From positions 5,649-69,648 of the forward strand of contig JABDBC010000004.1 of assembly GCA_013288825.1 (NCBI GenBank): a stretch of DNA of 64,000 nt, in the 5' to 3' direction. The notes under the pieces were generated by a model that was not told the DNA's origin, did no database searches, and saw only the letters and a program-made list of their open reading frames with translations. The translations under genes were made by a program, and so were the position numbers. Origin of the DNA: Chlamydiota bacterium (lineage in GTDB: Bacteria; Chlamydiota; Chlamydiia; Chlamydiales; Parachlamydiaceae). Shown here piece after piece: positions 1,028 through 63,885 of the stretch. Position 1 is the stretch's first letter. Each line of letters begins with the position of its first letter.

Positions 1028-1038
1028 TAGAGTGCTAA

Positions 1039-1451
1039 AAATGGAATGGACTTAATGAGGTAATTGCAGAAGTAATATCATTTTTGCTCTTTTTTTTCTC
1101 ATTTTGTAGCCCACTCCAAGGTTTCGCGAGCCTGCGAGCGGAACCGCAGGTGTGGGAAGCGATAAAACTCAAAACTTAACCAGGGACCTGGTTCTTCTTT
1201 TTTTTCTCTTTCTTATCACAAATTGAGAAAAAGAAAAAAATGAAGAACCAGTCCCTGGTTGAGGTGCGGTTCTCGTGATTCCCACACCTGCGGTTCCGCT
1301 CGCAGGCTCGCGAAACCTTGGTGTGGGCTACAAAATGAGAGAAAAAAGAGAAAAAATGATACCGTAGTGGACTGTAATGGACGATAAAACACTGTCCATT
1401 GGAGTCCACTACGGTCCATTACCGTCCATGTCCATTAAGTCCATTCCATTT
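1039..1451. repeat. nested mosaic palindromic element (~410 bp)
   Basis: Inverted-repeat pairs: 1039-1057/1433-1451, 1077-1157/1280-1360, 1180-1200/1242-1258, and a hairpin at 1361-1415. It carries the ATGGAC-periodic module and the GAGGTAATTGCAGAAGT module shared with other loci. Confidence 0.85.
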
Positions 1452-1471
1452 ATAGGGGAAAAACTTCTGTT

Positions 1472-4400
1472 TTACCTCCAGGGGATTCTTTTATTGACCT
1501 TCTCCATGACGAGATAAAGGCTTGGAGTGATGAAGAGAGTAATCAGCTGGGAAAGGCAAAGCCCTCCGATGATCACTAAACCAAGAGGACGACGCGATTC
1601 TGCACTTGCGCCGAAGCCGAGAGCGATTGGCAGAGCCCCAAATATGGCTGCAACCGTTGTCATCATGATCGGCCTAAAGCGTGCTAAGGAGGCATCATAG
1701 ATCGCATCTCGGGGTGTCATCCCCCTTGTGCGTATATTATCAAGGGCAAAGTCGACCATCATAATTCCATTTTTCTTCACAATGCCAATCAAAAGAATAA
1801 TACCGAGGTAAGAGTACATCGAGAGAGGCAAGTCAAAAATCCATAAGGTTAACAACCCTCCCAAAGTAGCTGGTGGAAGGGTTGTGAGGACGGTCACAGG
1901 GTGGACGAAGCTTTCGTACAACATACCTAGAATGATATAAATGGCAAAAATCGCAATGAAGAGGAGAAATCCTGCATTTTTGATCGATTCTTGAAAGGTC
2001 TGTATTGCACCAATCGGTTGCATCTGTATGATCGGGTCTACAAATTCCTTTTGTAGCTCTTGCAGTCGGTTGAGAGCTTGACCAAGGGTGAAGCCTGAAG
2101 CGAGATTGAAATCGATCGTGACGGAAGGAAATTGATCGATGTGATTGATGCTTGAAGCCCCTAATCCCTCTTCCCATTGTGCTACAGCCCCCATGGGGAC
2201 TAATTTATTGGATACAGCCGAGCGCATCCATAAGTAGTTGAAAATATCTGAATCCATCTGATACTTATCCAACAACTCCAAAATAACATTGTATTGGTCC
2301 ACAGCGGTCTCGATTCGCGTGACATAGTTGTACGAATAACTGAACATGAAGGCTCTTTCGATATCTGCAGCCGTAATGCCAAGTGAGGAGGCTTTGTCTC
2401 TCATTATGGACACATTAATCTGCGGCGAATTGATTTCTAGATCACTGTTGACCCCTTGAAAGATGGGGTCTTTTTGCATGGCAGTGATCAACTTTTGAGC
2501 AGAGGGATAAACTTTATCAGAGAAGATGCTTTGCATGGCTAGCTGGTAGTCACCGCGGCTTTCTTGTCCTGTTGCCAAGTCTATCAAAGGTAGATTTCTT
2601 ATAAATGATTGGATGCCTGGAATTTGAGCTAAGTTCTCATTGAGTTCTTTGATGACATCTTTAATAGGGGCTCGTTGATTATGGGGTTTTAAAGCGACGA
2701 GGTTTTGACCTTTGCGATATTCGGAATACGAACTAATGGCAATGACTTTATCAACTGCTGGATGGGCTTTCAACACATCGGCGACTTGTTTCTCATATTT
2801 CCTCATTCGAATCGAAGAACCCGCTTCCATTTCTTGAGTATAGACAATAAAAAAGCCAGCATCTTCATCAGGGACGAAATCGATAGAGATAGTATAAAAA
2901 AGCCAAACGGTTAAGACCAAACAAATTAGACCCACAGCGAGGGCTACGTAGCTTCGATCGATGACTTTTGTAAGCATTCTGCCGTAGGCATCGCGCATTT
3001 TTTTGTTCATGCGCGTTGAAAATTGAAAAAGCTTGCCTTCCCGATTGTTTTGGGGAAGGAATCGGCTGCACAACATGGGAGTGAGGCTGAGGGAGATGAC
3101 TCCTGAAATAATTGTGATGGCCGATAAAGTGATAGCAAATTCGCTTAATATTTTCCCTATTAAGCCCCCCATCAGAAGCATGGGGAGGAAGACTGCGATA
3201 AGGGACAGGGTCATCGAGACAATGGTGAAGCTAATTTGTCGTGAGCCTTCCAGGGATGCTTGTATACGGTCTTCTCCCGACTCCTGTCGTCTTACAATAT
3301 TCTCAAGGACCACAATCGCATCGTCGATGATGAAGCCGACAGCCAACGTCAATGCCAAAAGAGAAAGATTATCCAAAGTGAATTTGTAGGCATCCATTAG
3401 AATGAAAGTTCCGATGACAGACATCGGCATCACAATGGAAGGGATGATGGTATCGGCTATCTTTCCTAAATATAGCGTAATGACTATCACAACAAGGATG
3501 AGGGCAATGATAAGAGTCAGTTTAACATCGTCAATTGAACTGCGGATCGATTGAGAACGATCATAAAAGACATTTAATTCCACCGCTTGCGGCAGTTCTT
3601 TTTTCAGTGTAGCCAGAAGGTCATAAATCGAGTCCGATATTGCTACTGTATTTGCTGCGGGTTCTTTTTGAATTGCTAGTAGAATGGTGGGTTCCGTTTT
3701 GTCTTTGTCGACATATTCCACATGAATTTTGTCATTCTGAAAGCTCTCAACGGTTTTACCCAAGTCTTGAATGCGCACAGGGGTGCCATTGCGATAAGCG
3801 ACAATAAGGGGATCCCATTCAGCAGCAGTGACAAGTTGTCCATCAACAGAAAGGTTAGGAGCCTCTATTAGGCCGTCTAATTGTCCTGTGGGCAGGTTGA
3901 CATTTCCTAGGGCAATTGCAGTGGCTAATTCTGATAAGGAGATATCATGAGAGACCAATTTCCCGGGATCCACTTGTATGCGGATGGCCAATGGGGAACC
4001 AAAAACAGTGACCTGAGAAACACCTGAGAGCATGGAAATGCGCTGGCCGATAAAGTTATTTGCATATGTATATAAGTCGTTGAGGCGCATTGTTTTTGAA
4101 GAGAGCCCTATGTAAATGATCGGGAGTTCAGCAGGGTTTACTTTACGATATGTCGGGGCGTAAGGAAGATTTGGAGGAAGATTTGGCGTTGCGGTAATGA
4201 TGGCTGACTGCACATCTTGAGCTGCCTCAGTCATATTTTTATCGATGTTAAATTGGATGACGATGCTGCTGCTGCCTAAAGTATTGTTTGAGCTAACAAG
4301 AGTCGCTCCAGGAATTGCCATGAGTTGCTTTTCTAGAGGAAGGGCAACAGCATGAGCCATGACATCTGGAGTCATCCCTGGAAACAAAACGCTGACAGTG

Positions 4401-4534
4401 ATAGTGGGATAGGTCACATTAGGCAAATTGCTAATGGGTAAACGAAAATAAGCCAAAATGCCTGCAAACAGGATAGCGACCATTAACAGAGTAGTCATGA
4501 TGGGGCGGTTAATAAACGGTGCAGACAAATTCAT
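1472..4534 (-). CDS. RND (HAE1) efflux permease, AcrB/MdtB/MdtC-like, downstream paralogue
   Basis: 1020-aa ORF. Canonical N-terminus MNLSAPFINRPIMTTLLMVAILFAGILAY, two large periplasmic loops and multi-TM blocks. By eye about two thirds identical to the 4899..8012 product. Confidence 0.95.
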   Translation of the reverse strand: MNLSAPFINRPIMTTLLMVAILFAGILAYFRLPISNLPNVTYPTITVSVLFPGMTPDVMAHAVALPLEKQLMAIPGATLVSSNNTLGSSSIVIQFNIDKNMTEAAQDVQSAIITATPNLPPNLPYAPTYRKVNPAELPIIYIGLSSKTMRLNDLYTYANNFIGQRISMLSGVSQVTVFGSPLAIRIQVDPGKLVSHDISLSELATAIALGNVNLPTGQLDGLIEAPNLSVDGQLVTAAEWDPLIVAYRNGTPVRIQDLGKTVESFQNDKIHVEYVDKDKTEPTILLAIQKEPAANTVAISDSIYDLLATLKKELPQAVELNVFYDRSQSIRSSIDDVKLTLIIALILVVIVITLYLGKIADTIIPSIVMPMSVIGTFILMDAYKFTLDNLSLLALTLAVGFIIDDAIVVLENIVRRQESGEDRIQASLEGSRQISFTIVSMTLSLIAVFLPMLLMGGLIGKILSEFAITLSAITIISGVISLSLTPMLCSRFLPQNNREGKLFQFSTRMNKKMRDAYGRMLTKVIDRSYVALAVGLICLVLTVWLFYTISIDFVPDEDAGFFIVYTQEMEAGSSIRMRKYEKQVADVLKAHPAVDKVIAISSYSEYRKGQNLVALKPHNQRAPIKDVIKELNENLAQIPGIQSFIRNLPLIDLATGQESRGDYQLAMQSIFSDKVYPSAQKLITAMQKDPIFQGVNSDLEINSPQINVSIMRDKASSLGITAADIERAFMFSYSYNYVTRIETAVDQYNVILELLDKYQMDSDIFNYLWMRSAVSNKLVPMGAVAQWEEGLGASSINHIDQFPSVTIDFNLASGFTLGQALNRLQELQKEFVDPIIQMQPIGAIQTFQESIKNAGFLLFIAIFAIYIILGMLYESFVHPVTVLTTLPPATLGGLLTLWIFDLPLSMYSYLGIILLIGIVKKNGIMMVDFALDNIRTRGMTPRDAIYDASLARFRPIMMTTVAAIFGALPIALGFGASAESRRPLGLVIIGGLCLSQLITLFITPSLYLVMEKVNKRIPWR

Positions 4535-4607
4535 ATAATCATCACAAGTTAATCACAAGTTAGTAATACATAAGCACATGCAACAGGATAGTTAAGGAAA
4601 CACACCT

Positions 4608-4914
4608 CGAAGAAAAGTAACAGGATATGGAGGATCGCAAGCGGCAGGATAAGAAGGATAGCAAGCATCCTCTCGATATGAAAAAGAAATTCCAATGAGA
4701 AACGAAAAACGAAGTGTCGGAAAGAAAATAAAGGGCTTCGACTTTCTTCGCCTATTCGGTCCTTTATTTTCTTTCCGACACTTCGTTTTTCGTTTCTCAG
4801 GGGATCTTCCTAGATTGCTTGCAATCTGGGAAAACTAAAAACGTATCTCCCCCTCCCCTATCCTTCATATCCTGCCGCTTGCGATCCTCCATATCCTGTT
4901 ACTTTTTTTCTTCG
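4608..4914. repeat. nested palindromic element between the two RND genes
   Basis: Outer arms 4608-4651 / 4868-4914 and inner arms 4694-4735 / 4761-4800, plus small hairpins at 4665-4679 and 4811-4829. The right arm overlaps the last codons of the upstream RND gene. Confidence 0.85.
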
Positions 4915-7900
4915 TTGTTTCCTGTCTGAGCTTGATGCGGGTGCTTGCGCATCTTGTTACTTAAATTTTCCAATCCCAGATACAAAATTGGCGTTATAAA
5001 TAGGGTGATAAGCTGTGAGATCAATAATCCGCCAATGATGACAAGGCCAAGAGGTCGCCGTGCCTCAGCGTTTGCACCAAATCCTAAAGCAATAGGAATC
5101 ACCCCAAATACTGCAGCCATTGTAGTCATTATAACAGGCCTGAAACGCACTAAACAGGCATCGGTTATAGCTTCTCGGGATGCCATTCCTCTCAAACGAA
5201 TATTTTCGAGAGCTAAATCGACAATCATGATCCCATTTTTTTTCACAATTCCTATCAGCAAAATAATCCCTAAAAAGGAATACATAGAGAGGGGCATCCC
5301 AAACACCAATAAAACAAGAAGACCTCCAAATGTAGCTGGAGGTAACGTTGTAAGGATGGTAATGGGATGGACAAAACTCTCATATAAAATTCCTAAAATG
5401 ATGTAGATAGAAATAACAGTTATGATCAGCAGATAGCCAGAAGATTTTATAGATTCCTTAAATGTTTGTGCTGCACCGATAGATTGCGCAGAAACTCCCG
5501 GTTCTACAACTTCCTGAGTCAGTTGATTTAATCTTGTGAGTGCAGTTTCTAATGGAATCTCTGGTGCAAGATTGAAGGATATCGTTACGGCTGGAAATTG
5601 ATTGATATGGTTGACACTAGTAGCCCCCAAACCCTCATTCCATTGCATTGTCGCTGACAATGGGACCAGCTTTAAATTGAAAGGAGAGCGTATCCAAACA
5701 TTATTTAAGGTTTCTACCTGGCGTTGATATTCTGGATATAGCTCCAGAATGACGTTGTATTGATCTATCGGAGTCTGGATTTGCGATATTAAATTACCAG
5801 AGTAGCTGAGACTGAATACACTTTCAACATCAGCAGCTGTTATTCCATATTGAGCAGCTTGATCGCGTAATATACTGACATTAATTTGTGGAGTGTCGAT
5901 TTCTAAATCGCTATTGACTCCTTGGAATATAGGGTCTTCTCTCATTTTTTTAAGCAGCCTTCTAGCAGATGTATAAATGCTATCGGCATTAATGCCTTGG
6001 AGGGCAAACTGATAGGCCGCTCGGCTTTCTTGTCCTATTGCAAGATCAATTAGAGGAATGTTCTTAATAAAACATTGAACTCCCTCAATGTGGCTTAATT
6101 TTTTGTACAGATTTTGGATGATTGTGTTGATTGGAGGTCTTTCGTCTTGTGGTTTGAGATGGATATAATTCAACCCCTTCCGATATTCGTTGATGGAGCT
6201 TAAAGCTACGAAGGTATCGATGCCAGGTTCATTTTTTATTACTTCGAGAATTTGATTTTCATAATTGAGCATTCGTGCAGAGGACCCTCCCTCCATTTCT
6301 TGGGTATAGATAGCAAAAAAACCCACATCTTCATTTGGGACAAAATCGGTTGGGATATACATGAACATTAAGACAGTGGCAATTAAACTCAGCAAACCAA
6401 TAGCTAATGCTGCAAATTGATGGTCAAGGACCCTTAGAAGCATTTTGTGATAAACATTGCGCATAGATGAGTTCATCTTGTCAGAAAATTTTTCCATTCT
6501 CGATTTGCGATTGCCTTGACTATTCCTAGGGGGTATGAATTGGCTGCAAAGCATAGGTGTGAGCGTCAGGGATATAATTCCTGAAATGATTGTAATAGCT
6601 GCCAGGGTGATGGCGAACTCACTAAAGATTTTTCCGATCAATCCACCCATAAAAAGCATGGGAATAAACACAGCGAGGAGGGACATTGTCATTGAAACAA
6701 TCGTGAAGCCGATTTCACGTGAGCCTTCTAAGGATGCATCCAAAGGCGATTCTCCCATTTCCACACGTCGAATGATGTTCTCCAAGACAACCACAGCATC
6801 GTCGATGATGAAGCCCACTGCCAGTGTCAAGGCCAATACGGATAGGTTATCCAACGTGAAATTAAGCGCATACATCACTATGAAGGTTCCTATGACGGAC
6901 ATTGGAAGGACTAATGAGGGGATAATTGTATCGGCGATTTTTCCTAAGAAGACATAAATCACACCCACGACAAGGATGAGGGCAAGAAAAAGTGTAATAA
7001 TGGCATCGCTAATGGCTGTCCGAACAGGAATGGAGTGATCAAAAAGAACATGAGTCTCAATAGCAGGTGGAAGCTGATATTTCAATTCGTCTAATAATTG
7101 ATATATCCCATCAGCAATGGCTACAGTGTTAGCGCCAGGTTCTTTTTGAATTGCCAACAGGACCGTGGGTTGAGAACCTTTGGAATCGACGTATTGACCG
7201 AGAATTTTGTTGTTTTGGAAATTCTCTATAGCCCTTCCAACATCTTGAACGCGCACGGGGGTGCCATTCCGATAAGCAATGATCATCTGCTCGTAATCCC
7301 GCGCATTAACCAGTTCCCCATTTACTGAAATAATAGGAGCTTCAATGCTGCCATCCAGTTGTCCCGTTGCCAGGAACACATTTTCACTTTGAACTGCTGC
7401 TGCTACTTCATCCAGCGTGACACCGTGTGTGACGAGCTTGGCGGGATCTACTTGTATGCGGACAGCCAAAACGGAGCCGTAAGTGGTCACTTGTGCAACC
7501 CCAGCCAACATGGAAATGCGCTGTCCGATCAATGTATTTGCATATGTGTATAAGTCATATCGTGGCATCGTGGGGGAAGTTAATCCAATATAGATTACAG
7601 GTTGCTGTGCGGGATTAATTTTGCGGTAAACAGGTCCGTAAGGAATATTCGGCGGTAAAAATGGTAAGGCGGTAGAAACGGCTTCCTGAACATCTTGAGC
7701 CGCGGTTTCCATATCTTTGTCGATGTCGAACTGTAATACGATACTTGTGTTTCCCAATGTACTGTTTGAGCTGACAATGCGAAGCCCAGGAATAGCCATG
7801 AACTGCTTTTCCAGTGGAAGAGCCACTGAATTTGCCATTGTTTCTGGCAGAGATCCAGGAAAAGTGGCTTTGACATTAATGGTGGGAAAATTGACATTAG

Positions 7901-9124: not shown

Positions 9125-9164
9125 TATGTTTGCTCACTATTATCCTGAGTTTTTTGTTTAAAAT

Positions 9165-9495
9165 ACTTGATAAGGTAGCGCCCCTGCCGGGGCGAAATAC
9201 GCGTGTGGGGCGTTTACCCAGGCTTCTCTGGCCCCTCCGGGGCAGCGCTCAGCCTGGGCTAAATTGTAACAGCCCTCCGGGCCGTGTGCAATGGCTGTTG
9301 TGGGCACGATTCCGGGCTGCTTACGATTTCTTTCGGGCTATGTGCCATGTCATTTTCCCACAAAAGTTTTTGCACACGGCCCGGAGGGCTGTTACAATTT
9401 AGCCCAGGCTGAGCGTTGCCCCGGAGGGGCAAGCGAAGCCTGGGTAACGCCCCAAACATGCATCTCGCCCCGGCAGGGGCGCTACCTTATCAAGT
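9165..9495. repeat. GC-rich long-arm palindromic element (331 bp)
   Basis: Arms of about 125 nt (9165-9291 / 9369-9495) around an approximately 77-nt centre. It is strikingly GC-rich relative to its flanks. The core 9212-9291 resembles 29622-29701. Confidence 0.9.
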
Positions 9496-9503
9496 GTTTT
9501 AAT

Positions 9504-11045
9504 CTAAAGACCCTGGTTATTATCATGTAATGGTAATTGATACAATTCTTTAGGTGGACTCCTTTCCCAATGGCCGCTGGTATCTGTTAACACTCCTACT
9601 GAAAATGCCAAATTTGCCAATGCTGATGCCCATTGTGTACGGGTCAATATTTCTTGCGCTCTGGCATTGCTTAATGTTGTCAGTGAAGTCATTATGTCCA
9701 AAATTGAGGCTGTTCCCGTCTTATATTGTATCACAAAACCTCGAAACGCCCTTTCACTATATTCTACAGCTGCACGACTTGATGCCAAAGCCGCTTCCGA
9801 TGACGTGAATGCATAATAATTGGTCACGACTTGAGTCGATACTGCTGCTACCTGAACATCCAAATTGGCTAATGCCTCTTCAATTTGAGCGCGAAATTGC
9901 CGTTGTTGGTTCAAAAAGAAGAATCCTTGAAATATTGGAAAATTTACTTGAAGGGCAGCTGTTTCATTATATCCTGAAGGCTTTGTGGGGAAAATAAAAC
10001 GGACTTGATTCCAGTTGGCATTCGCGGTTAATGTGGGCATGCTATTAGAATAAGAAATTGCCAGTTGAGCTTCTTGCTGTTTAATAGCTGTGATGGCTAT
10101 GCCTAAGTCGGGTCTTCTCTTTTTTGCCAGCTCAAGCAAGCTCGAGATGTTTCCCGATATTTCTATAACTGGCAATTCTTGAGGCAGGTTTTCAACTGAA
10201 ATATCTGCATCAGGTGGCAATCCAACTGCGATCAAAATTTGTCCTAAGGAAGTTTGTTCCGACCCCTGCGCTTGCAGCCAGCTTGTTCGGAATTGCTCTA
10301 AATTCGATTGCGCTAGTAAAACATCTGTCAATGTCGCAAGACCTGCTGTACGCATCACTTGTGCTGCCTCTAATGCTATTTGGGCATCTTTAAGATCCTG
10401 CTGGTAGGCTTCAACAAGGCCCTTATTCCCTATGTAGGCAGTATACGCGTTCAACACTGATAGCATCACTTGCTGCATCGTGAAATTATGCTGCCAATTT
10501 GATGCGTAAAGAGCCTGGTGAGCAAACTCTGCTGTAGCATCTCGACCTCCGAAATCTAAAAGCAAATAGGATAGATTTAGGTTGTTTGATAGATTCGTCG
10601 TGTTAGTTTCTGTTGTAGGTGTCGTCGGGGTTGTGCCGGTGTTATTTGAGACAATCCCTGAACCAGAAGTTGCAAAGGATGAACCTCGATTCGTTTGGGC
10701 ATTTAAGCTTCCAAAATAGGTTATAGTTGGGTAATAGGGACTTAAGGATGCGTGGTAGGCATATGCTGCCGCCCGTGCAGCATTCCAGCTCACCCTTGTA
10801 GCAGGATTATTATACAAAGCCATATCGAGCAGACGTGACAAAGGCATTGTCCCCGACAAGTCGGAAATGTCAAAAAAAGGTTCTGCTGTTTTCTTCACTA
10901 TTATTGGTTTTTTATCCCATGTATTACCAATAGAAGTGGGTACATCCCCTTTGATCACTGGATCATAGAAAGGCTCACAACCACATAGTAGCAGTAATAA
11001 CAGAGCTGTTACACTATTGTGGATGTATTTCGATTTATTAGTCAT
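9504..11045 (-). CDS. outer-membrane efflux lipoprotein (TolC/NodT family)
   Basis: 513 aa. Lipobox LLLLCGC. Two OEP-type repeats with alpha-helical heptad-like segments. Located in the efflux cluster. Confidence 0.9.
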   Translation of the reverse strand: MTNKSKYIHNSVTALLLLLLCGCEPFYDPVIKGDVPTSIGNTWDKKPIIVKKTAEPFFDISDLSGTMPLSRLLDMALYNNPATRVSWNAARAAAYAYHASLSPYYPTITYFGSLNAQTNRGSSFATSGSGIVSNNTGTTPTTPTTETNTTNLSNNLNLSYLLLDFGGRDATAEFAHQALYASNWQHNFTMQQVMLSVLNAYTAYIGNKGLVEAYQQDLKDAQIALEAAQVMRTAGLATLTDVLLAQSNLEQFRTSWLQAQGSEQTSLGQILIAVGLPPDADISVENLPQELPVIEISGNISSLLELAKKRRPDLGIAITAIKQQEAQLAISYSNSMPTLTANANWNQVRFIFPTKPSGYNETAALQVNFPIFQGFFFLNQQRQFRAQIEEALANLDVQVAAVSTQVVTNYYAFTSSEAALASSRAAVEYSERAFRGFVIQYKTGTASILDIMTSLTTLSNARAQEILTRTQWASALANLAFSVGVLTDTSGHWERSPPKELYQLPLHDNNQGL

Positions 11046-12586: not shown

Positions 12587-13951
12587 TTATCCATTTGGTA
12601 ATCGACGATACCTTAAATTTCGTGTCCTCCCAATCGATTCAATCAATCCTTTTTCAATGAGCAAATTAAGCCATCTTTGTGCCGTAGCACGTGAAATCGA
12701 AAATTTATTGATCACATCTTGGGTAGTAATTTCATTTTGAGAATAGAATAGAGTTAAAATTCCTTCTTCAGCTTGGGTCTTAATTGGAAGTGATTGAGAA
12801 GAGGCCCTCGGCAAAATGCACTTTATAAAATTTGCTCCTTCTATAATTTGAGGTTTTTCAAGTCCCCAAGCTTCATAACTCTTAAAGATGTTAATGAATC
12901 CAGTTCCCATTTTTTCCACAAGCCCCATTTCTCGAAAAATCTTACAGATAGCCGGATTGCGCAAATATGTCAGTCCCTTTAACAACTGATCTTGTTCAAT
13001 TGGTCCAGAAAAACCTCCCGGGCTATATAATTCCAAGCGATCATCGTAAATAGAAATCTTAGAGGGGGCCTGAATGTGATAATTTCGATGAATCAGTAAG
13101 TTTAACAAGGCCTCTCTAAACGCAACCTCCGGTATTTCTAATTTTTCATCTCTTACAATCGCTGTAATTGAGAATGACTTTGAAAGACGACTAAGAACAA
13201 AATGATGGGCTTGTTGGAATTGATTTAAAAGAGTTCCTTCACAATCTATTGAAGCAATAGCATCCCTGCCTTCTATGCCGCGAAAATGACTTACTATTAT
13301 CATTGCTTCTGAAAGAAAAAACTGGGGGGATTTTCCAAAATTTAATATACCCGCATAAGTGGGAAAGAGTTTGGAATGCTCTTCAACAATCAAAGAATAG
13401 GAACGCAAGACGTCTTGTGTCACTTTTGCAGATGCTTGATTCTTTCTGTTATCAAGAAAATGTTGAACCAATTGATTCTCGAGGGTATCAAGGGGGGCAT
13501 TGTAAACTGGCAGTTTTTCAAAATCTATGCTATGTGATTGCCATTTTAGCTCCTCAATCATCTCAGGAGTCGCATGTACGGTGCTCCGACCCACGCGAAT
13601 ATAGGTTCCTTTCTCTTTTCCTTCTGATTTCCTAAAATAGGGTTTACTCATCCCCGATGATACGGAAATGATTAACACAGTTTTATCCCCAAACACTTGA
13701 GTAGACACTAAGGGAATGATGGGTGGATAGCAGGCCTCATAAATAGAATGATCCAATGATTCAAGAAGCTTATTTATTTGACCCTCAGCAAGTCCTACTA
13801 TTGTTCGATCATTATCGACACCGAGTATAAGCTTCCCTCCTTTTTGATTGCAAAAACCGATGATTGTTTTAATTATTTGATCATTTTTAGGAACTTCTCT
13901 TTTAAATTCCAACAAAACCGATTCTGATTCTGGATGACGAAATAAGCTCAT
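12587..13951 (-). CDS. AlbA_2 (Schlafen-like) / HATPase_c_4-type putative DNA-binding ATPase with C-terminal wHTH
   Basis: 454 aa. The N-terminus ESESVLLEFKREVPKNDQIIKTIIGFCNQKGGKLILGVDNDRTIVGL is typical of AlbA_2 (divergent AAA_4) proteins. C-terminal HTH: ITTQDVINKFSISRATAQRWLNLLIEKGLI. Confidence 0.85.
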   Translation of the reverse strand: MSLFRHPESESVLLEFKREVPKNDQIIKTIIGFCNQKGGKLILGVDNDRTIVGLAEGQINKLLESLDHSIYEACYPPIIPLVSTQVFGDKTVLIISVSSGMSKPYFRKSEGKEKGTYIRVGRSTVHATPEMIEELKWQSHSIDFEKLPVYNAPLDTLENQLVQHFLDNRKNQASAKVTQDVLRSYSLIVEEHSKLFPTYAGILNFGKSPQFFLSEAMIIVSHFRGIEGRDAIASIDCEGTLLNQFQQAHHFVLSRLSKSFSITAIVRDEKLEIPEVAFREALLNLLIHRNYHIQAPSKISIYDDRLELYSPGGFSGPIEQDQLLKGLTYLRNPAICKIFREMGLVEKMGTGFINIFKSYEAWGLEKPQIIEGANFIKCILPRASSQSLPIKTQAEEGILTLFYSQNEITTQDVINKFSISRATAQRWLNLLIEKGLIESIGRTRNLRYRRLPNG

Positions 13952-13958
13952 ACATTCT

Positions 13959-14139
13959 CCTCATTTGCCTCACATAACTTAATTATGCATCAAATGAGGC
14001 GAATGAGTCAAATAGAATGTGATATCTGCAGTTTTTTTGCCTCATTTGCCTCATATAACTAAAATTATGCATCAAATGAGGCGAATGAGGCAAATAGAAT
14101 GCGATATGTATTTCCATGAGTTTTGCCTCATTTGCCTCA
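13959..14139. repeat. 81-86 bp tandem repeat x ~2.2 with internal inverted repeat CCTCATTTG / CAAATGAGG
   Basis: CCTCATTTGCCTCA occurs at 13959, 14040 and 14126. The first copy overlaps the RBS of the AlbA_2 gene (complement AAATGAGGAGAATGTATG). Confidence 0.85.
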
Positions 14140-14169
14140 ATTGAATGATCATCAGTTGAACTTGGAATG

Positions 14170-14958: not shown

Positions 14959-16473
14959 ATGTTAAACACTTTTAAGCACATCTTATCCAAAAATTTCAAC
15001 TATTCAAGTTATCTCATTATTTTCATTCTAACTCTGATGGCCTACATCTCAAGCAACGGCTTGTTAGCCGATGAGAAAGGGTTGACACCTTTTCAGAAGA
15101 CTGAAAATAGCGCCAAAACATTGATTCGCGGTGGGACAATTGTTACCATGAATCCAAACCGTGATGTTTTATACAAGCAAGATATTCTCGTTGTTGGAAA
15201 TCGCATTCAAGCCATTGGAGATTTAAGTAAAGAATATGACAGTGTTGACAAAGTCATCGATGCAAACGGTCAAATTATCATTCCTGGGCTAATCCAAACT
15301 CACCTACACCTATCTCAGACGCTATTTCGGAATTTGGCAGCTGACAAAAATCTAGAACAATGGCTGGATGTTATTTTGCGATTACAAGCTGCACTCGATA
15401 AGGATTCCAATTATTGGTCCAGCATGCTGGGGATTGCTGAGCTATTTCTAGGGGGCACGACCGCTATCTATGATATGAACGCCACTCATTATGTTGATAG
15501 CGCTTTCGAGGCGATTGAAAAGACGGGTATGCGCGGTTTTTCTGGTAAAAGAATGACTGATATACTAAAACCAGGTTATCCAGAAAAGATGGTTCAATCC
15601 ACGGATGTGGCCTTTAAAGAAAGTGTGGATTTATTTCAGAAATGGGATGGACGTGCCGGAGGGCGGATTCAATACTGTTTTTGTCCAGGATCAGTCGATG
15701 AGTGCACTGAAGAGCTCTTGAAGCTCACTTCTGACTTTTCTGCAAAGTACCAAGCAAGGGTTCAAACCCATGCTGCAGAAAGTAAGGATGTAGCTCCAAT
15801 CGTCCTAAAACGAACCGGAATGAGCGAAGTCGCTTACTTAAACTCACTTGGATTGATTAATCCCAGAACTGTGCTGGCCCATTGTGTTCATGTAAGTCCT
15901 TCTGATATAGATCTGGTGGCGAAAGGAGGAGCCCATGTGGCTCACTGCCCTACTTCCAACCTATTTCTTGCTTCTGGAATCGCCCCAACACCCTCTATGA
16001 TTGACAAGGGAATTAACATTGGCATGGGATCGGACAATGCTGCGGACAATACAAATTTGGACACCTTTAAGGAATTGCAGTTAGCTGCTTTGCTTCAAAA
16101 AGGCCTTCACGCAAATCCCACGATTCAGCCCAGTGCGCAGAGGGCTTTTGAAATGGCCACCCTTGGTGGGGCGAAAGCTCTCGGACTAGAGGAAGAGATC
16201 GGCAGTATAGAAACTGGAAAGAAGGCTGATTTGGCCATTCTCGATTTTAGAAAGCCGCACACGTGGCCCAATGAGTCCGAAGTCAATTCAAAGGATAACA
16301 TTTATACACGCATAGTTTATTCGGCAATGTCTTCCGATGTTGTATTGACGATGGTTGACGGGCAGATAGTAATGCAGGATCGCAAGTTGTTGACGATGGA
16401 TCTCAACGAGGTTTTAGAGAAATCGAATGCAGCCATTATACGTCTGCTATCCATTACTCAAGCGCCTTTGTAA
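14959..16473 (+). CDS. metal-dependent amidohydrolase, ATZ/TRZ (MtaD/SAH- or guanine-deaminase-like) family, with N-terminal TM/signal segment
   Basis: 504 aa. HxH motif in GLIQTHLHLSQT; further HAAES, AHCVH and GSDNAADN motifs in family order. Confidence 0.85.
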   Translation: MLNTFKHILSKNFNYSSYLIIFILTLMAYISSNGLLADEKGLTPFQKTENSAKTLIRGGTIVTMNPNRDVLYKQDILVVGNRIQAIGDLSKEYDSVDKVIDANGQIIIPGLIQTHLHLSQTLFRNLAADKNLEQWLDVILRLQAALDKDSNYWSSMLGIAELFLGGTTAIYDMNATHYVDSAFEAIEKTGMRGFSGKRMTDILKPGYPEKMVQSTDVAFKESVDLFQKWDGRAGGRIQYCFCPGSVDECTEELLKLTSDFSAKYQARVQTHAAESKDVAPIVLKRTGMSEVAYLNSLGLINPRTVLAHCVHVSPSDIDLVAKGGAHVAHCPTSNLFLASGIAPTPSMIDKGINIGMGSDNAADNTNLDTFKELQLAALLQKGLHANPTIQPSAQRAFEMATLGGAKALGLEEEIGSIETGKKADLAILDFRKPHTWPNESEVNSKDNIYTRIVYSAMSSDVVLTMVDGQIVMQDRKLLTMDLNEVLEKSNAAIIRLLSITQAPL

Positions 16474-16510
16474 CTGTATGAAGTTTAACTAAAAGATGAG
16501 AGTAAGAGAA

Positions 16511-16540
16511 AGGCACTTAGTAATTTTTTCCTAAGTGCCT
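16511..16540. terminator. bidirectional hairpin terminator candidate (AGGCACTTAG-10 nt-CTAAGTGCCT)
   Basis: Perfect 10-bp stem between convergent genes, with T-rich sequence following. Confidence 0.55.
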
Positions 16541-16557
16541 CGAATATTTTTACCACG

Positions 16558-17157
16558 TTAATAGACAACAAACGAACCTGTAGCAGAAGCTATATTTCCA
16601 GTCACAGGAGCATCTAGATTAATAAACTCATAAGAGTTTTTATCCCCTAGTCCTGATACGAGCACACGTTCACCAACACTCCATTTTTTTGTAGATAAAT
16701 GATTATACCAGCTAAATTCCCAAACTGAATTATCATTTAATCTTATGAATTTTCCGTCGTCATTGATTTCTGCAATCATGAGGCCTGATTCAGGAGAATC
16801 GATGACATCAAAGATGAGGTAGGCTTCAACCTTTTCTTGATCTGGCCCACTAATTCTTTTAGTGGCCAACAGAAGAGCATCATCTTTTACGTCTGCTTTA
16901 AAGACTAGGACATCCCCCGGCTGCCACGAATTCATTACGTTGTCATCGCGGGTTTTGTAGTCTAATATACGCAAAATGAGACCGTTATCTAGTGTGATAG
17001 TCCCGGCCAACATTGCTTGATCATAAGCTAAAGAGATATCTGCTATAACATTTTGGTAAACTGGCAATGGAATCGAGTTTGTTGCTTGTACTTGACTGAA
17101 TTGACAGACGACCAATAGCAATAAGAGGCTTGAAAAAAACATTTTCAAACATTTCAT
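16558..17157 (-). CDS. secreted hypothetical protein
   Basis: 199 aa with signal peptide MKCLKMFFSSLLLLLVVCQFSQVQA. No family recognised. Confidence 0.7.
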   Translation of the reverse strand: MKCLKMFFSSLLLLLVVCQFSQVQATNSIPLPVYQNVIADISLAYDQAMLAGTITLDNGLILRILDYKTRDDNVMNSWQPGDVLVFKADVKDDALLLATKRISGPDQEKVEAYLIFDVIDSPESGLMIAEINDDGKFIRLNDNSVWEFSWYNHLSTKKWSVGERVLVSGLGDKNSYEFINLDAPVTGNIASATGSFVVY

Positions 17158-19283: not shown

Positions 19284-20705
19284 CTACAGAAATTGTCCAA
19301 AATCGATAATTTTCGCGAAAAAGTCACTTTCGAGAACGGAATCTGTGACACCGTTCACATGTATGAGAATGGGACGAACGGAAAAGTTCTTTGGCTTTGC
19401 GATGCGATCCATTTTCTGCCGTAATTCCTTTATGACTGAGGGCCCAATCGGCTCTTTGGAAAACTTAATTTCACAGATGTAAAGCGTGTTAAACCTTGTT
19501 TGGATCAAATAATCAATCTGACATCCAGGATGTGTTTTTGTCGAGCGTTGGAAGTAGGGATTGTCATAAACCACTTCACTAGGATTCAAACCTAAAAGTT
19601 CATAAACCTTATGAAAATTGTTGAGTACCAAATTTTCAAATTGAATTCCCATTATGGTCGTCCATGCTGGGGGGGCGGCAATGCGGTTTTTTTCAATCTG
19701 TGTGCGTTGAGGTTCGATGTATCTCAGATAAAAACGGAGGTAATTGTCTCTGAGGCGAAATTTACATAAATTGGACTCTTTGCTACTTTTAATGTTCCAG
19801 GTGTGATCTCGAACGATATAACCAGTCTCTATTAGGTCTTCGAGGTAATCGCTGATCGTTCCTCCCTTTTCCAGATCGACCGCAGAGCAAATTTGCTCCA
19901 GCGTAGCGCTTCCTTCCACAAGCCGTTCTACAATTTGTTTGTAGCGTTGGGATCGCGTGGAAAATAGGTCGGAAAAAATTCGATCAAACTCTTCAACTAA
20001 CAAACCTCCCTTGCGGAAGGCTAAGTTATAGATATTGTCCTCTGCCGATAGGCCTGGATCGATTTCTTCTAGATAACGAGGAACACCACCTGTGACCGAA
20101 AGAATCTTAAACTTATCGTAAGAGGAAACAAGAGACGCTTTTTTTCTCCAAAACAGGTTACAGATGGGCAGTGGAAGCTCGTCAAGGGTCAGCTCCAATG
20201 AAATGCGTCCCATAAATCCCGTACTGCTTAGGATGTTGGTATCTATCCAGCTGGACATCGATCCACTGAGAATCATGAGGAGTTTGGGATTATTTTTAAA
20301 ATGCAAGTCCCATGCTGATTTCAACTTACCAAGAAATGTGTGGTCGAAAGAACCCATCCAATTAATTTCGTCTAGTACCACTAAAACTTGCTTCGATTGG
20401 GTTGCCTGAGAAAGATGCCAGAAGATATCCCCCCAGTCGTCAGCTTTTAAGCCTCGGATTCCCAACAGCCGCTCCATTTGCTGAACAAAATATTCTCGTT
20501 GTGTTTGTGCCGTGGTTTTTTCCGTAGGAGGAAGGCCGATAAAAATAAATGTTTTTAACCCCTTGCTAAATTCAAGAATAAGCCGACTTTTTCCAATCCG
20601 CCGCCTTCCTTTGATGACAACCAAGCTAGAGGTCTTTTTTTTGAGCAATCTATTAAGGCGATCTAACTCTTCCTTTCTTCCATAAAACGGTGTTTCGTCC
20701 ATCAC
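19284..20705 (-). CDS. ATPase, Arch_ATPase/DUF234-type
   Basis: 473 aa. Walker A GRRRIGKS, Walker B VVLDEINW. The C-terminal region resembles DUF234 (PD-(D/E)xK-like/wHTH tail) proteins. Confidence 0.85.
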   Translation of the reverse strand: MMDETPFYGRKEELDRLNRLLKKKTSSLVVIKGRRRIGKSRLILEFSKGLKTFIFIGLPPTEKTTAQTQREYFVQQMERLLGIRGLKADDWGDIFWHLSQATQSKQVLVVLDEINWMGSFDHTFLGKLKSAWDLHFKNNPKLLMILSGSMSSWIDTNILSSTGFMGRISLELTLDELPLPICNLFWRKKASLVSSYDKFKILSVTGGVPRYLEEIDPGLSAEDNIYNLAFRKGGLLVEEFDRIFSDLFSTRSQRYKQIVERLVEGSATLEQICSAVDLEKGGTISDYLEDLIETGYIVRDHTWNIKSSKESNLCKFRLRDNYLRFYLRYIEPQRTQIEKNRIAAPPAWTTIMGIQFENLVLNNFHKVYELLGLNPSEVVYDNPYFQRSTKTHPGCQIDYLIQTRFNTLYICEIKFSKEPIGPSVIKELRQKMDRIAKPKNFSVRPILIHVNGVTDSVLESDFFAKIIDFGQFL

Positions 20706-20745
20706 ATGACCCCTTCTTTGATATCTTCTACTATAGCATAATCAC

Positions 20746-20811
20746 ATCATGGAATCAAGAAAAGTTAATTCCATGATGAAATTTATCGGTATGAATTCTC
20801 ATCATGGAATG
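20746..20811. promoter_or_regulatory. CATCATGGAAT / ATTCCATGATG / CATCATGGAAT operator-like repeats
   Basis: Copies at 20746-20756, 20769-20779 (inverted) and 20801-20811, 40-105 bp upstream of the ATPase start and in the divergent region towards higA. Confidence 0.45.
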
Positions 20812-20907
20812 GAGTTTTCTTTGTTTCATGACGAGAAGTTATTCAAAGTTTTATGCGTGACGTAATGCTTAAAATCATGATAAGATATAATTATAAGGGA
20901 GAAATTT

Positions 20908-21922: not shown

Positions 21923-22096
21923 ATGAATCTCTCGTTGGTATATACCGGTATATACCACATTTGGATTTTAGAAGTCAATATAAGTGCTACAATTCCCTGA
22001 ACATGACCAACTTGGCAGGAATGTTTGAAGTCTAATCAATCCTAGCATTCCGATACGCATCAGGCTAAGGTATGAAATTTCTCAGTAAAAAATTCA

Positions 22097-22190
22097 TTTT
22101 TTGATGCTTATACAGCATCAAAATATTGATTTTTGATGCTTATACAGCATCAAAATGTTGATTTTTGATGTCTTAAATGCTATCATAAAG
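22097..22190. repeat. 31-32 bp tandem repeat x ~2.5, each unit a palindrome TTTTGATGCT-TATAC-AGCATCAAAA
   Basis: Units begin at about 22097, 22130 and 22162 (degenerate). The array ends 20 bp before the XRE gene start. Confidence 0.8.
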
Positions 22191-24513: not shown

Positions 24514-24740
24514 TGCTTCGGTTGAGTAGGGGGCCTTGAGGGCCTCCTACGGTTGAACTATGGAAACTTCAGTGAGTGTTTTTGGATGCCCTTCTTCATC
24601 TAACACAAATTTTCCCCTTACCTCAATCAAGTCTTTTCGACTTTCCAAAATGGAGCCTTCTATTTCTGGACAATAGTAACATAGAGGCTAAAACAAAGCC
24701 TAAAAAAGTTCAAAATTCACCATAAAATCGATTAACTCTT

Positions 24741-24910
24741 AGGGATCGTCAAAAAATAACCTATACAACTCCATAGGAGAAATTGCGTCTTAGCTCTCGT
24801 AAAATTACTTCTGAACAACCCCTGTTGTGGGCTGTTCAGAAGTAATTTTACGAGAGCTAAGACGCAATTTCTCCTATGGAGTTGTATAGGTTATTTTTTG
24901 ACGATCCCTT
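24741..24910. repeat. 170-bp near-perfect palindrome (arms ~78 nt)
   Basis: AGGGATCGTCAAAAAATAACCTATACAACTCCATAGGAGAAATTGCGTCTTAGCTCTCGTAAAATTACTTCTGAACA pairs with its complement ending at 24910. Read directly. Confidence 0.9.
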
Positions 24911-25089
24911 ATCTTCTAGAGATCTTATTGTCTCTGTCAAGACAAATATCTGGTGTCCAGGATGACAAGTTCAATTTTGCATATTTATAAGGCCTACAGA
25001 ACTATTGACAATAACTTATTAAAAAAGTTAAAATCTTTATACTTTTACATACAATCTTTATTTAAAGTAATAATTTATTTTGGATCTTT

Positions 25090-25728
25090 ATGAATGTTAC
25101 TGCTACTGGCGGTTCTGAATCGTCAAGTTCTTTTTCCCCCTCTAAGTCTCTTCCTATAAGCTTGGATGATCTTATAAGGAAAGTTTATGCAGTGGCAAAT
25201 ATAACGAACTTTGAGGAATGGCTTAAGCTCAATAATATGTCAGGTCCTGATACTGGAATGTACACGCAGCGGGGAGATTTTGCTGTCTTTGTTGTTATGA
25301 AGCGCCCCACAACTGCAATTCAGATAAACGATTGGATGGAAAAAGTACAAAAAAAATCTTATGACTTAGTGAAAACACACAAAGCCGCAGGCGGCGATCA
25401 AAGCATTTCGCCTCTAATTCAAGCTTGGGTTAGCGATCCTTTGAAGCCGACAGTGTTGTATCTCTCCGGTTTCGCTGGGGTAGAATCACTACCATTGGTT
25501 GTAGGTACCATTCGTCAGAAAGCTGTTGAAGTTATTCAAGACCATCTTCGCTCTAGAGAAGGCGTAATAGGAATAGAAGAACTTCTTATCAGAGTAGAGG
25601 ATATGAATCAGTTTCCAGTGGTATTACTAAAGCTTATTGGACTTTTCACTGGAATGTTCCTTGAAATGAGCGATTTATCCACACCCGATCTTACTCTTGC
25701 TGTAAAAAAGACCATGGTGATAAAATAA
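25090..25728 (+). CDS. hypothetical protein with Ser-rich N-terminus
   Basis: 212-aa ORF. No homology recognised and the RBS is weak. Confidence 0.6.
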   Translation: MNVTATGGSESSSSFSPSKSLPISLDDLIRKVYAVANITNFEEWLKLNNMSGPDTGMYTQRGDFAVFVVMKRPTTAIQINDWMEKVQKKSYDLVKTHKAAGGDQSISPLIQAWVSDPLKPTVLYLSGFAGVESLPLVVGTIRQKAVEVIQDHLRSREGVIGIEELLIRVEDMNQFPVVLLKLIGLFTGMFLEMSDLSTPDLTLAVKKTMVIK

Positions 25729-27047: not shown

Positions 27048-27062
27048 AAGCAAAGGATAAAA

Positions 27063-27088
27063 GGACATAAGGAGGTAATTGCAGAAGT
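27063..27088. repeat. solo copy of palindromic-element modules (GGACATAAGGA + GAGGTAATTGCAGAAGT)
   Basis: Same 17-mer as at 1057-1073 and the complement of 29901-29917. Lies between convergent MFS and osmC genes. Confidence 0.6.
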
Positions 27089-27110
27089 GCTCAGCCTGAA
27101 AGACAGCTGC

Positions 27111-28670: not shown

Positions 28671-28810
28671 AAAACTCCATAATTTATATTAACAATAATA
28701 TTATTATAAAATATATGAAATATAAAAGTCAAATAAAAAATACTATAATATATAATATATTGATGGAATTTAATATATGATTTAATTACACAAGATACAA
28801 TACACTTTAT

Positions 28811-63393: not shown

Positions 63394-63765
63394 ATGAAAT
63401 TGAATAATAAAAATCGAATTGCATTAGTCACAGGAGCTTCATCAGGCATTGGAGAAGCAATTTCGCGAGAACTTATCAAACGAGGTTGGCTTGTAATTGG
63501 TATTGCAAGATCTTCCAATAAGCTTTCCGAGATAAGAAAAGAGTTACGAGACGCTTTTATTCCCTTTACCTGTGATGTGTCTCAAAAGAGAAACATAGAA
63601 GAAACATCTCAACAGATTCGTGAAATGGGTCTTTGTCCTTCTTTATTTTTTCTTAATGCCGGTATTGCTGGTGAGTCCGTTATTGAAAATCCCAATCGAT
63701 TTGATCTCAACATTCATGAAAAGATTATGCAAGTGAACTACTTTGGTGTTTTCTCCTGCACATAA
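63394..63765 (+). pseudogene. short-chain dehydrogenase/reductase, truncated after ~120 aa
   Basis: IALVTGASSGIGEAISRELIKRGWLVIGIARS (TGxxxGxG) and NAGI are present. The frame ends right after VNYFGV, where the tandem repeat begins. The catalytic YxxxK region is missing. Confidence 0.75.
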
Positions 63766-63885
63766 CTTACATATACATATTATGTGCATCTTATCATTTA
63801 AGTCAAGAATGCACATAACTTACATATACGTATTATGTGCATCTTATCATTTAAGTCAAGATTCACATAACACTTATCTGATGTG
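63758..63885. repeat. 53-bp tandem repeat x ~2.3 with internal inverted repeat GCACATAA..TTATGTGC
   Basis: Units start at 63758, 63811 and 63864 (partial). The array begins exactly where SDR homology stops. Confidence 0.85.

Follow-up and report, generated by a model that had tools for sequence, protein, structure and literature searches.

The intergenic DNA at positions 1035-1455 of a 64,000-nt stretch from a Chlamydiota bacterium (assembly GCA_013288825.1, contig JABDBC010000004.1; hereafter the window) can be folded into hairpins nested within hairpins, and long palindromes occupy several other places in the same DNA. The question raised by this locus is what such structures are and how they came to lie between genes. 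In our opinion they are probably non-autonomous mobile elements of several families, similar to foldback transposons or to miniature inverted-repeat transposable elements (MITEs), which have also landed inside each other. They would be relics and, possibly, copies that are still active.

Long palindromes of the window and their families

A uniform search with a minimum arm length of 25 nt gave nine palindromes in the window and none in each of 20 block shuffles. All the long palindromes were confined to the first 37 kb. Besides the element at 1035-1455 (E1), they were located at 4609-4910, 9138-9522, 24719-24931, 28810-28991, 29540-29917, 29931-29987 and 36226-36338. The elements measured 113-531 nt, with imperfect arms (83-96%) of 50-186 nt, in DNA of about 40% guanine plus cytosine (GC). 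Their coordinates are collected in Table 1.

Table 1. Palindromic elements of the window (E1 to E8), their parts and the modules associated with them
Feature	Position	Strand	Description
E1, composite element	1035..1455	none	Family-A palindrome, left arm split by element B, with element C inside B
E1, outermost left-arm piece	1035..1057	none	Family A; pairs with 1433-1455 (23 nt, 96%)
Module ii (GAGGTAATTGCAGAAGT)	1057..1073	+	Left terminus of inserted element B
Element B	1076..1361	none	83-nt arms, 1076-1158/1279-1361, 96%
Element C	1175..1263		Middle of B; two small convergent hairpins followed by T runs
E1, remaining family-A part	1361..1455		Inner left arm 1361-1382, loop, whole right arm 1394-1455
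E2, singleton nested palindrome	4609..4910		Outer arms 4609-4661/4858-4910 (96%), inner arms 4686-4734/4761-4809 (92%)
E3 target-site duplication, left copy	9138..9144	+	TATTATC (coding strand GATAATA)
E3, family-G element	9145..9517		OEP/MFP junction; inner 91-nt arms are the G core
E3 target-site duplication, right copy	9518..9524	+	
Module v, second copy	22054..22094	+	Followed by 32-nt tandem hairpin units
E4, singleton palindrome	24719..24931		103-nt arms (89%), 7-nt centre, A run/T run at base
E5, solo remnant	27052..27110	+	GGAC-type tract, module ii and short G-like piece
E6, intact family-A palindrome	28810..28991	none	85-nt arms (92%), 10-nt repeats
Module v	29458..29498	+	Abuts H element
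E7, H element	29491..30021		Outer arms 29491-29542/29969-30021 of GGGAC tracts
G palindrome inside E7	29540..29917		178-nt arms (89%), 22-nt centre
Module ii variant adjoining E8	36180..36196	+	
E8, family-A palindrome	36226..36338		Starts 10 nt past the stop of a histone-H1-like gene

The first-pass annotation, made from the letters of the window, had proposed a single family sharing sequence modules at eight or more sites. Families were assigned here by a sensitive self-BLAST of the window, so that copy counts cover 64 kb, and the single family was resolved into at least three that are unrelated in sequence: A (three copies: E1, E6 and E8), G (two copies: E3 and the palindrome inside E7) and H. 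Two singletons, E2 and E4, had no detectable sequence match to other sites in the window and have only the architecture in common with the rest. Copies of an element were 70-88% alike. In agreement with the same annotation, the elements appeared to have no coding capacity: open reading frames (ORFs) inside them, including the mirror ORFs of the G palindromes, gave neither a coding signal nor a Pfam match. No Rfam family reached its gathering score for any element of the window. The sub-threshold matches, obtained at permissive thresholds, were generic long hairpins (miRNA precursors), and the match to WsnRNA46 (60.3 bits, threshold 65.3) was rejected after inspection of the alignment, which agreed in structure only.

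Nested hairpins had been described at 1039-1451, and all four layers were recovered in E1. When the 431-nt stretch containing it was folded as RNA, the free energy was -267 kcal/mol for the minus strand and -283 kcal/mol for the plus strand; shuffled versions gave about -105 and -110, which corresponds to z = -26 and -32, respectively. The right arm of its family-A palindrome is intact, while the left arm is broken after ...GGACTTAATG by 303 nt (1058-1360), which start with module ii and continue with palindrome B, carrying palindrome C at its centre. The left arm (1035-1382) also lacks 17 nt of its own sequence, and one deletion removing both the right-hand module ii and these 17 nt could explain the asymmetry of the composite. 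The segment 1361-1455 is made of 10-nt GTCCATTACC repeats and contains the separate hairpin 1361-1382/1394-1415, 91% paired. Each arm of B has a self-pairing GC-rich unit with GTAG in front. In C, 1175-1204 pairs with 1234-1263 and 1188-1213 with 1226-1251, and its hairpins with their T runs are terminator-like on both strands.

The arms of family A are built from a 10-nt unit, GTCCATTACA, repeated 3.6-4.6 times per arm around centres of 5-12 nt. The core of the unit is GGAC, the termini are CAGCATTTCCGGCTAAAAATGG and the arms have no internal hairpins (z = +0.5). Both Tandem Repeats Finder and a spaced-motif search gave a period of 10 nt, with a super-period of 20 nt, which corrects the 9-nt period first assigned to these tracts. 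With a spacing of 10 bp all the GGAC cores would face the same side of the helix, and several transposons have subterminal arrays of binding sites arranged in this way. E6 displays the complete layout, consisting of CAGCATTTCCGGCTAAAAATGGAATGG, about five 10-nt GGAC-core units, a 12-nt centre and the mirror image, and it sits in a divergent intergenic/promoter region. The gene next to E8 (36349-36606) encodes an 85-aa, Lys/Ala-rich protein that resembles chlamydial histone-H1-like proteins and has no Pfam match. With respect to family H, each arm of E7 holds one small terminator-like hairpin, there is a local hairpin at 29931-29987, and the left arm is interrupted, between AAGGGACGTA and AAGGGACATA, by the G palindrome 29540-29917.

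The arm of family G consists of clusters of three GC-rich hairpins that resemble repetitive extragenic palindromes (REPs), with TCC or TGCC loops common to both copies. In E3, GTAG stands ahead of the first hairpin, and it is missing from the homologous hairpin of the other copy. When the two copies were aligned, 38 positions had changed in both arms together and 30 in a single arm; therefore, palindromy was maintained while the copies diverged. The terminal inverted repeats of the copy at 29540-29917 are formed by module ii (29540-29556 and 29901-29917) plus about 20 nt. Module ii had been listed as a freely recurring unit. Its recurrence was confirmed, with five copies starting at 1057, 27072, 29540, 29901 (minus strand) and 36180, and with seven matches at up to three mismatches against 0.26 expected. 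Its status as a free module was not, since it is the terminal inverted repeat of that G copy; it bounds only one of the two. Module iii is part of the GGAC-type tract and could not be upheld as a separate module (four matches against 1.0 expected, a number reached by 4 of 100 shuffles). Module v was found in the two places reported, with 80% identity between 22054-22094 and 29458-29498. The first of these is followed, in a divergent intergenic region, by 2.4 copies of the 32-nt unit TTTTTGATGCTTATACAGCATCAAAATATTGA (22098-22175); every unit folds into a hairpin and has T runs on either strand. The remnant E5 occupies the spacer between convergent MFS and OsmC genes. The gene that follows E4 (25090-25728) is an ORFan, whose sole match among 5.8 billion protein clusters is itself.

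Junctions of the efflux operon in the window and in relatives

The genes at 11045-1472 on the minus strand form an RND efflux operon with the order OEP, MFP, AcrB, AcrB. The orthologous operon was compared in five relatives (loci L027, L028, L029, L075 and L076; AcrB identity 82-86%), within a comparison that covered the 64-kb window of this genome and, for each of roughly ten relatives, about 20 kb. The OEP and MFP genes overlap by 14-20 nt in L028, L075 and L076, and in the window 380 nt lie between them. The two AcrB genes overlap (ATGA) in L027, L029 and L075, with gaps of 45 nt in L028 and 72 nt in L076; this junction measures 364 nt in the window. E2 and E3 were missing from the orthologous junctions of the five relatives.

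E3 is flanked by a 7-bp repeat, which on the sequence evidence is a target-site duplication in the strict sense. The relatives have GATAAT only once at this site, as Asp-Asn codons near the C-terminus of OEP (...RDDNES...). When E3 and one copy of the repeat were deleted in silico, the reading frame became ...LPLHDNSEQT followed by its stop, and this stop again overlapped the start of MFP (TAATG). A canonical unit of GTAG plus stem, GTAGCGCCCCTGCCGGGGCG, is present in the outer arms of E3. In E2 the arms are made of AGGAT-type motifs, and the insert at its junction contains, apart from the palindrome, one more small hairpin and a tail of 75 nt. All copies had been taken to be intergenic. This does not hold for these two elements, as the last codons and the stop of OEP (9504) are supplied by E3, and those of the upstream AcrB (4899) by E2. 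In addition, one arm of E3 has a putative outward sigma-70-like site (9290-9263, minus strand), which is not kept in the other G copy and which could drive the MFP gene; promoter-like sites were not enriched.

The place of E1, after the second AcrB, differs among the relatives. L027 holds nothing there, L028 has a half-copy of a GGGAC-tract element (with a full palindrome at L028 17598-17710) and L029 an element of CCACAGAG tracts. In L076, positions 16264-16959 directly after the second AcrB contain an IS200-family Y1 transposase gene of about 157 aa with one frameshift, which scored 59 bits on the NCBIfam model transpos_IS200, matched Pfam Y1_Tnp and reached 19.5 bits on the model of REP-associated tyrosine transposases (RAYTs), whose cut-off is 80. 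This gene is flanked by self-pairing inverted repeats of 70-75 nt (92-94%), which have no sequence similarity to any element of the window. L075 has a palindrome with 67-nt CCACAGAG arms (9834-9967) at the MFP/AcrB junction, which in the window is uninterrupted. Palindromes of this CCACAGAG type were seen in three relatives (L020 5350-5536 and 18643-18776; L029 about 6900-7100; L075 9834-9967); the short motif seems conserved across genomes, and whole elements do not align.

BLAST of all the window elements against 12 chlamydial loci revealed no similarity, and the element families are therefore lineage-specific. The sequences compared suggest that each lineage holds its own families of one shared design. 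At the def locus, the relatives proved not to be syntenic with the window. Among named organisms, the best relatives of the window's peptide deformylase were those of Criblamydia sequanensis (69% identity) and of metagenome-assembled genomes (MAGs) of Rhabdochlamydiaceae (67-72%), and relatives of its AcrB proteins include Parachlamydiaceae MAGs; by these protein affinities the host is an environmental, Parachlamydiaceae-like chlamydia.

Wider database scans gave nothing comparable. A family-A 17-mer had 15 matches in a genome collection, all in unrelated taxa with unrelated flanks. Two of these matches were intergenic tandem arrays of the family-A 10-mer (ACGGTCCATT) in unrelated MAGs (four copies at L008 153-190 and two at L010 1197-1220), and they are probably a coincidence arising from the search pattern. 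A metagenome scan with a family-A 26-mer returned no match, the window's own contig being missed as well, and a 20-mer of the G core had two chance matches in a high-GC organism. Scans of viral contigs with the A unit and with module ii gave single chance matches in coding contexts, and neither 29450-30025 nor the module ii terminus had a BLAST match among plasmids.

Probable mobile elements and the alternatives

Non-autonomous transposition is the simplest account of these data because the elements are short and non-coding, have inverted termini, are dispersed and nested, include one with a target duplication and are absent from the orthologous sites. The proposal in the first-pass annotation that they are dispersing repeats rather than conserved terminators is supported by the empty junctions in relatives, the duplication around E3 and the insertion of one element into another. 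A transposase encoded elsewhere in the genome would mobilise the elements, and E3 shows that insertion can be accompanied by a short target duplication. The elements have landed at the few positions that a compact genome tolerates: on a stop codon or just past it, at the junctions of overlapping operon genes, and within older copies, which gave rise to the nested mosaics 1035-1455 and 29491-30021. Transcripts of the elements would form very long hairpins that might act as bidirectional terminators or be cut by RNases, and the efflux operon could be split in this way. Two genes would also have had their final codons rewritten.

A likeness to REPs, to bacterial interspersed mosaic elements (BIMEs) and to MITEs had been noted earlier. 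The MITE-like dispersal is borne out, and as to REP/BIME, the likeness is limited to the GC-rich arms of family G. The elements are below about 600 bp, lack coding sequence, have terminal inverted repeats and, in the case of E2 and E3, differ in presence at orthologous sites. As in the bacterial MITEs (Correia/NEMIS of Neisseria, ERIC/IRU of enterobacteria, RUP of pneumococcus and Nezha of cyanobacteria), they are short and bounded by inverted repeats, those of families A and G are dispersed within the 64 kb, one copy has a target duplication, orthologous sites are empty, gene ends are adjoined or overlapped and RNA hairpins are likely. They differ from those MITEs in being palindromic as a whole, with arms of 50-186 nt around a tiny centre, in having arms made of 10-bp subrepeats or hairpin clusters, in their frequent nesting and in the lack of a parent insertion sequence in the window. 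The A-type elements are nearer in architecture to foldback transposons than to REP/BIME. Drosophila foldback (FB) transposons and plant foldback-type MITEs, which are eukaryotic and have arms of hundreds to thousands of bp, likewise possess long inverted arms of short tandem subrepeats, a minimal centre, variable copy size and a flanking duplication. Family A, with its 10-nt unit arms and 5-12-nt centres, has this layout, although the sequences are unrelated and the likeness is architectural, not implying homology. The Rickettsia palindromic elements (RPEs) are also palindromic, belong to an obligate intracellular host and can join coding sequence, but they measure about 100-150 nt and often lie in frame inside genes, whereas the elements described here are longer and nested, and of genes they replace the ends only. 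BOX elements of Streptococcus pneumoniae are modular mosaics whose end modules pair into a stem-loop; in contrast to our elements, they have fixed A, B and C modules and no long perfect arms, and the sequences are unrelated.

It must be noted that several observations weigh against transposition of this kind. A clean target duplication was established for E3 alone. It was sought around E2 and around B in E1, and none was found, and the candidate repeats flanking E6 (ACACTT) and the G palindrome 29540-29917 (AAGGGACRTA, 9/10) could be explained by chance or by the periodicity of the tracts. No transposase or integrase was detected by Pfam among the window ORFs of at least 80 aa not lying within a larger annotated gene; to that extent the earlier remark that no transposase is present in the window holds. 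Two palindromes, E2 and E4, have no second copy among the 64 kb in which copies were counted, the divergence of the copies (70-88% alike) gives no sign of recent activity, and the presence/absence differences are those between species or genera, not between close strains. Finally, the excess of concerted changes in the two arms of G is not predicted by the simple decay of copies made by cut and paste.

The main rival is movement as single-stranded hairpins by an IS200-like Y1 (HUH) transposase, as proposed for REP doublets forming hairpins (REPINs) with their RAYTs and for TIRtrons; the long-armed palindromes would then be paired inverted repeats left after loss of the gene. We regard this route as rather unlikely for the set as a whole, and possibly valid for some families. 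TIRtrons consist of a Y1 transposase gene with long self-pairing inverted repeats (Di Nocera et al., 2013; PMC3733652), and the Y1 gene of L076, which occupies the position equivalent to that of E1, agrees with this architecture. Element B has a like layout without the gene, its 83-nt self-pairing arms, preceded by GTAG, surrounding 120 nt. The outer arms of E3 with their GTAG-plus-stem unit, the inverted short GC-rich hairpins of the G arms in a genome of 40% GC, the mosaics and the many concerted arm changes, which suit a need to preserve the hairpin, point in the same direction. On the other hand, Y1 transposition leaves no target duplication, and REPINs have none, while E3 has one of 7 bp. 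A palindrome of 20-40 nt with a conserved GTAG (or CGTC) tag, as in REPs, was not found, given that GTAG is limited to the E3 outer arms and the arm units of B; in the second G copy the corresponding hairpin lacks it, as do A, H, E2 and E4. The units are several-fold longer than those of REP/REPIN, families A and H lack REP-like hairpins, and the family-A arms are free of internal hairpins. Furthermore, the repeats of L076 have no sequence in common with the window, its protein falls far under the RAYT cut-off, and tblastn found neither a Y1 remnant nor a RAYT in the window.

A more speculative extension, to which we give still less credit, is an undescribed foldback system in a clade of environmental chlamydiae. 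Its arms would be either arrays of a short protein-binding motif (GGAC here and in L028, CCACAGAG in three relatives) or REP-like hairpins, and it would be moved as self-pairing single strands by an IS200-like Y1 transposase with long inverted repeats. The hairpin would be re-templated or homogenised at each move, and insertion would occur preferentially at gene junctions and into older copies. If this were true, re-templating would explain why the arms change together, and the elements would remodel operons and gene ends in compact intracellular genomes.

The idea that these are host-selected structural signals, arisen or kept in place as bidirectional terminators, RNase III sites or mRNA stabilisers, seems to us improbable. 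It draws on the contact of seven of the eight sites with a gene 3' end, on the A run before and the T run after the stems of A, H, E2 and E4, on the small hairpins in C and in the H arms, terminator-like on both strands, and on the retention of palindromy despite divergence. Such small units inside C and the H arms do resemble intrinsic terminators (a GC-rich stem of about 5-15 bp plus a U run), but arms of 80-180 nt far exceed the needs of termination, and a terminator scan stayed at shuffle level (19 against 16.6 and 19 against 16.5). The relatives lack the elements at these junctions, where the genes overlap and are presumably co-translated, E6 lies in a divergent promoter region, and a target duplication and nesting are unexpected for terminators arisen in place. 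A terminating effect is compatible with mobile elements as a side effect.

An artefactual origin, either as inverted chimeras from whole-genome amplification of sorted cells or through assembly, is very improbable. Amplification of sorted cells does create inverted junctions, and the source samples appear to be of the JGI/SRA sorted-cell type, a guess from the accession style that is unconfirmed. The window contig measures 76,447 nt and derives from a JGI/NCBI assembly and from reads SRR8433142. Independent Logan contigs were identical to window 1408-4638 and 29903-32248, with their ends falling inside elements; such breaks of short-read contigs are the usual effect of repeats and inverted repeats on short-read graphs. 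However, the arms are imperfect (83-96%) with distinct loops, and the palindromes belong to diverged non-coding families at several loci instead of being inverted copies of neighbouring genes. Removal of E3 restores a conserved junction, with a conserved codon pair duplicated. Like palindromes occur in other assemblies of relatives, including a 1.3-Mb contig (L028), and one relative has identical palindromes in two separate samples.

Readings as integron attC sites, CRISPR or partition sites were set aside because size and orientation of the genes did not fit and partner genes were missing. An attC site is an imperfect palindrome of 57-141 nt that has conserved core sites, lies 3' of a cassette lacking a promoter and goes with an integrase; the elements here reach 531 nt, have mixed gene orientations with one divergent promoter site, and are accompanied by no integrase in the window (Pfam); attC core sites were not formally searched.

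Other repeats of the window and significance of the elements

Some other repeats were observed in the window. At 855-1014 there is a 70-nt tandem repeat of 2.3 copies (77-83%), rich in AACATGTT palindromes; it lies upstream of an AAA-type ATPase gene on the minus strand, which is cut off by the beginning of the window. Another hairpin, TTTTTTCGTAGTCGACTACGAAAAAA, is perfect and is found at 784-809. Tandem repeats of about 81 nt (13959-14149; 2.3 copies, 92-96%), with CCTCATTTGCCTCA and its complement, lie directly upstream of a Schlafen/AlbA_2-HATPase_c_4 gene (12587-13951) and look like an operator/promoter array. An inverted repeat of 43 nt (20742-20836), imperfect (77%) and based on ATCATGGAAT motifs, is located upstream of the AAA ATPase gene 19284-20705. 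Three ATPase genes of this general type, one of them partly in the window, have upstream repeat arrays. A 53-nt tandem repeat (63757-63871; 2.2 copies, 95-98%), with a TGCACATAA...TTATGTGCA palindrome per unit, begins where a truncated short-chain dehydrogenase ORF ends. A 73-nt direct repeat (38045-38117 and 40884-40956, 93%) may be a duplicated gene fragment, one copy being within a DUF7790 gene (37684-39084, minus strand) and the other across the start of a small ORF (40913-41215). The region 44076-51811 encodes an 1826-aa RHS/YD-repeat protein followed by three small ORFs without a family match, a layout suggestive of a polymorphic toxin locus with its immunity genes.

The full texts searched contained no account of repeats of the MITE, REP or foldback type in Chlamydiota. 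Elements of this class are familiar from other bacteria; the present ones are notable for the length of the arms, their construction from subrepeats, the nesting, the location at overlapping operon junctions and the excess of concerted changes in the arms. To our knowledge, the genomes of obligate intracellular bacteria, apart from Rickettsia and Wolbachia, are usually thought to be poor in such elements. For work on uncultured chlamydiae it must be considered that these elements fragment short-read assemblies, which matters for metagenome binning. The excess of changes in both arms offers in turn a testable indication of the way in which such palindromes are copied. Escherichia coli does not tolerate palindromes of this size because of SbcCD, and the persistence of arms of up to 178 bp with centres as short as 7-22 bp is informative on DNA repair in this lineage. 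In addition, a conserved efflux operon split at two junctions and two rewritten C-termini offer natural tests of the effect of huge hairpins on operon expression.

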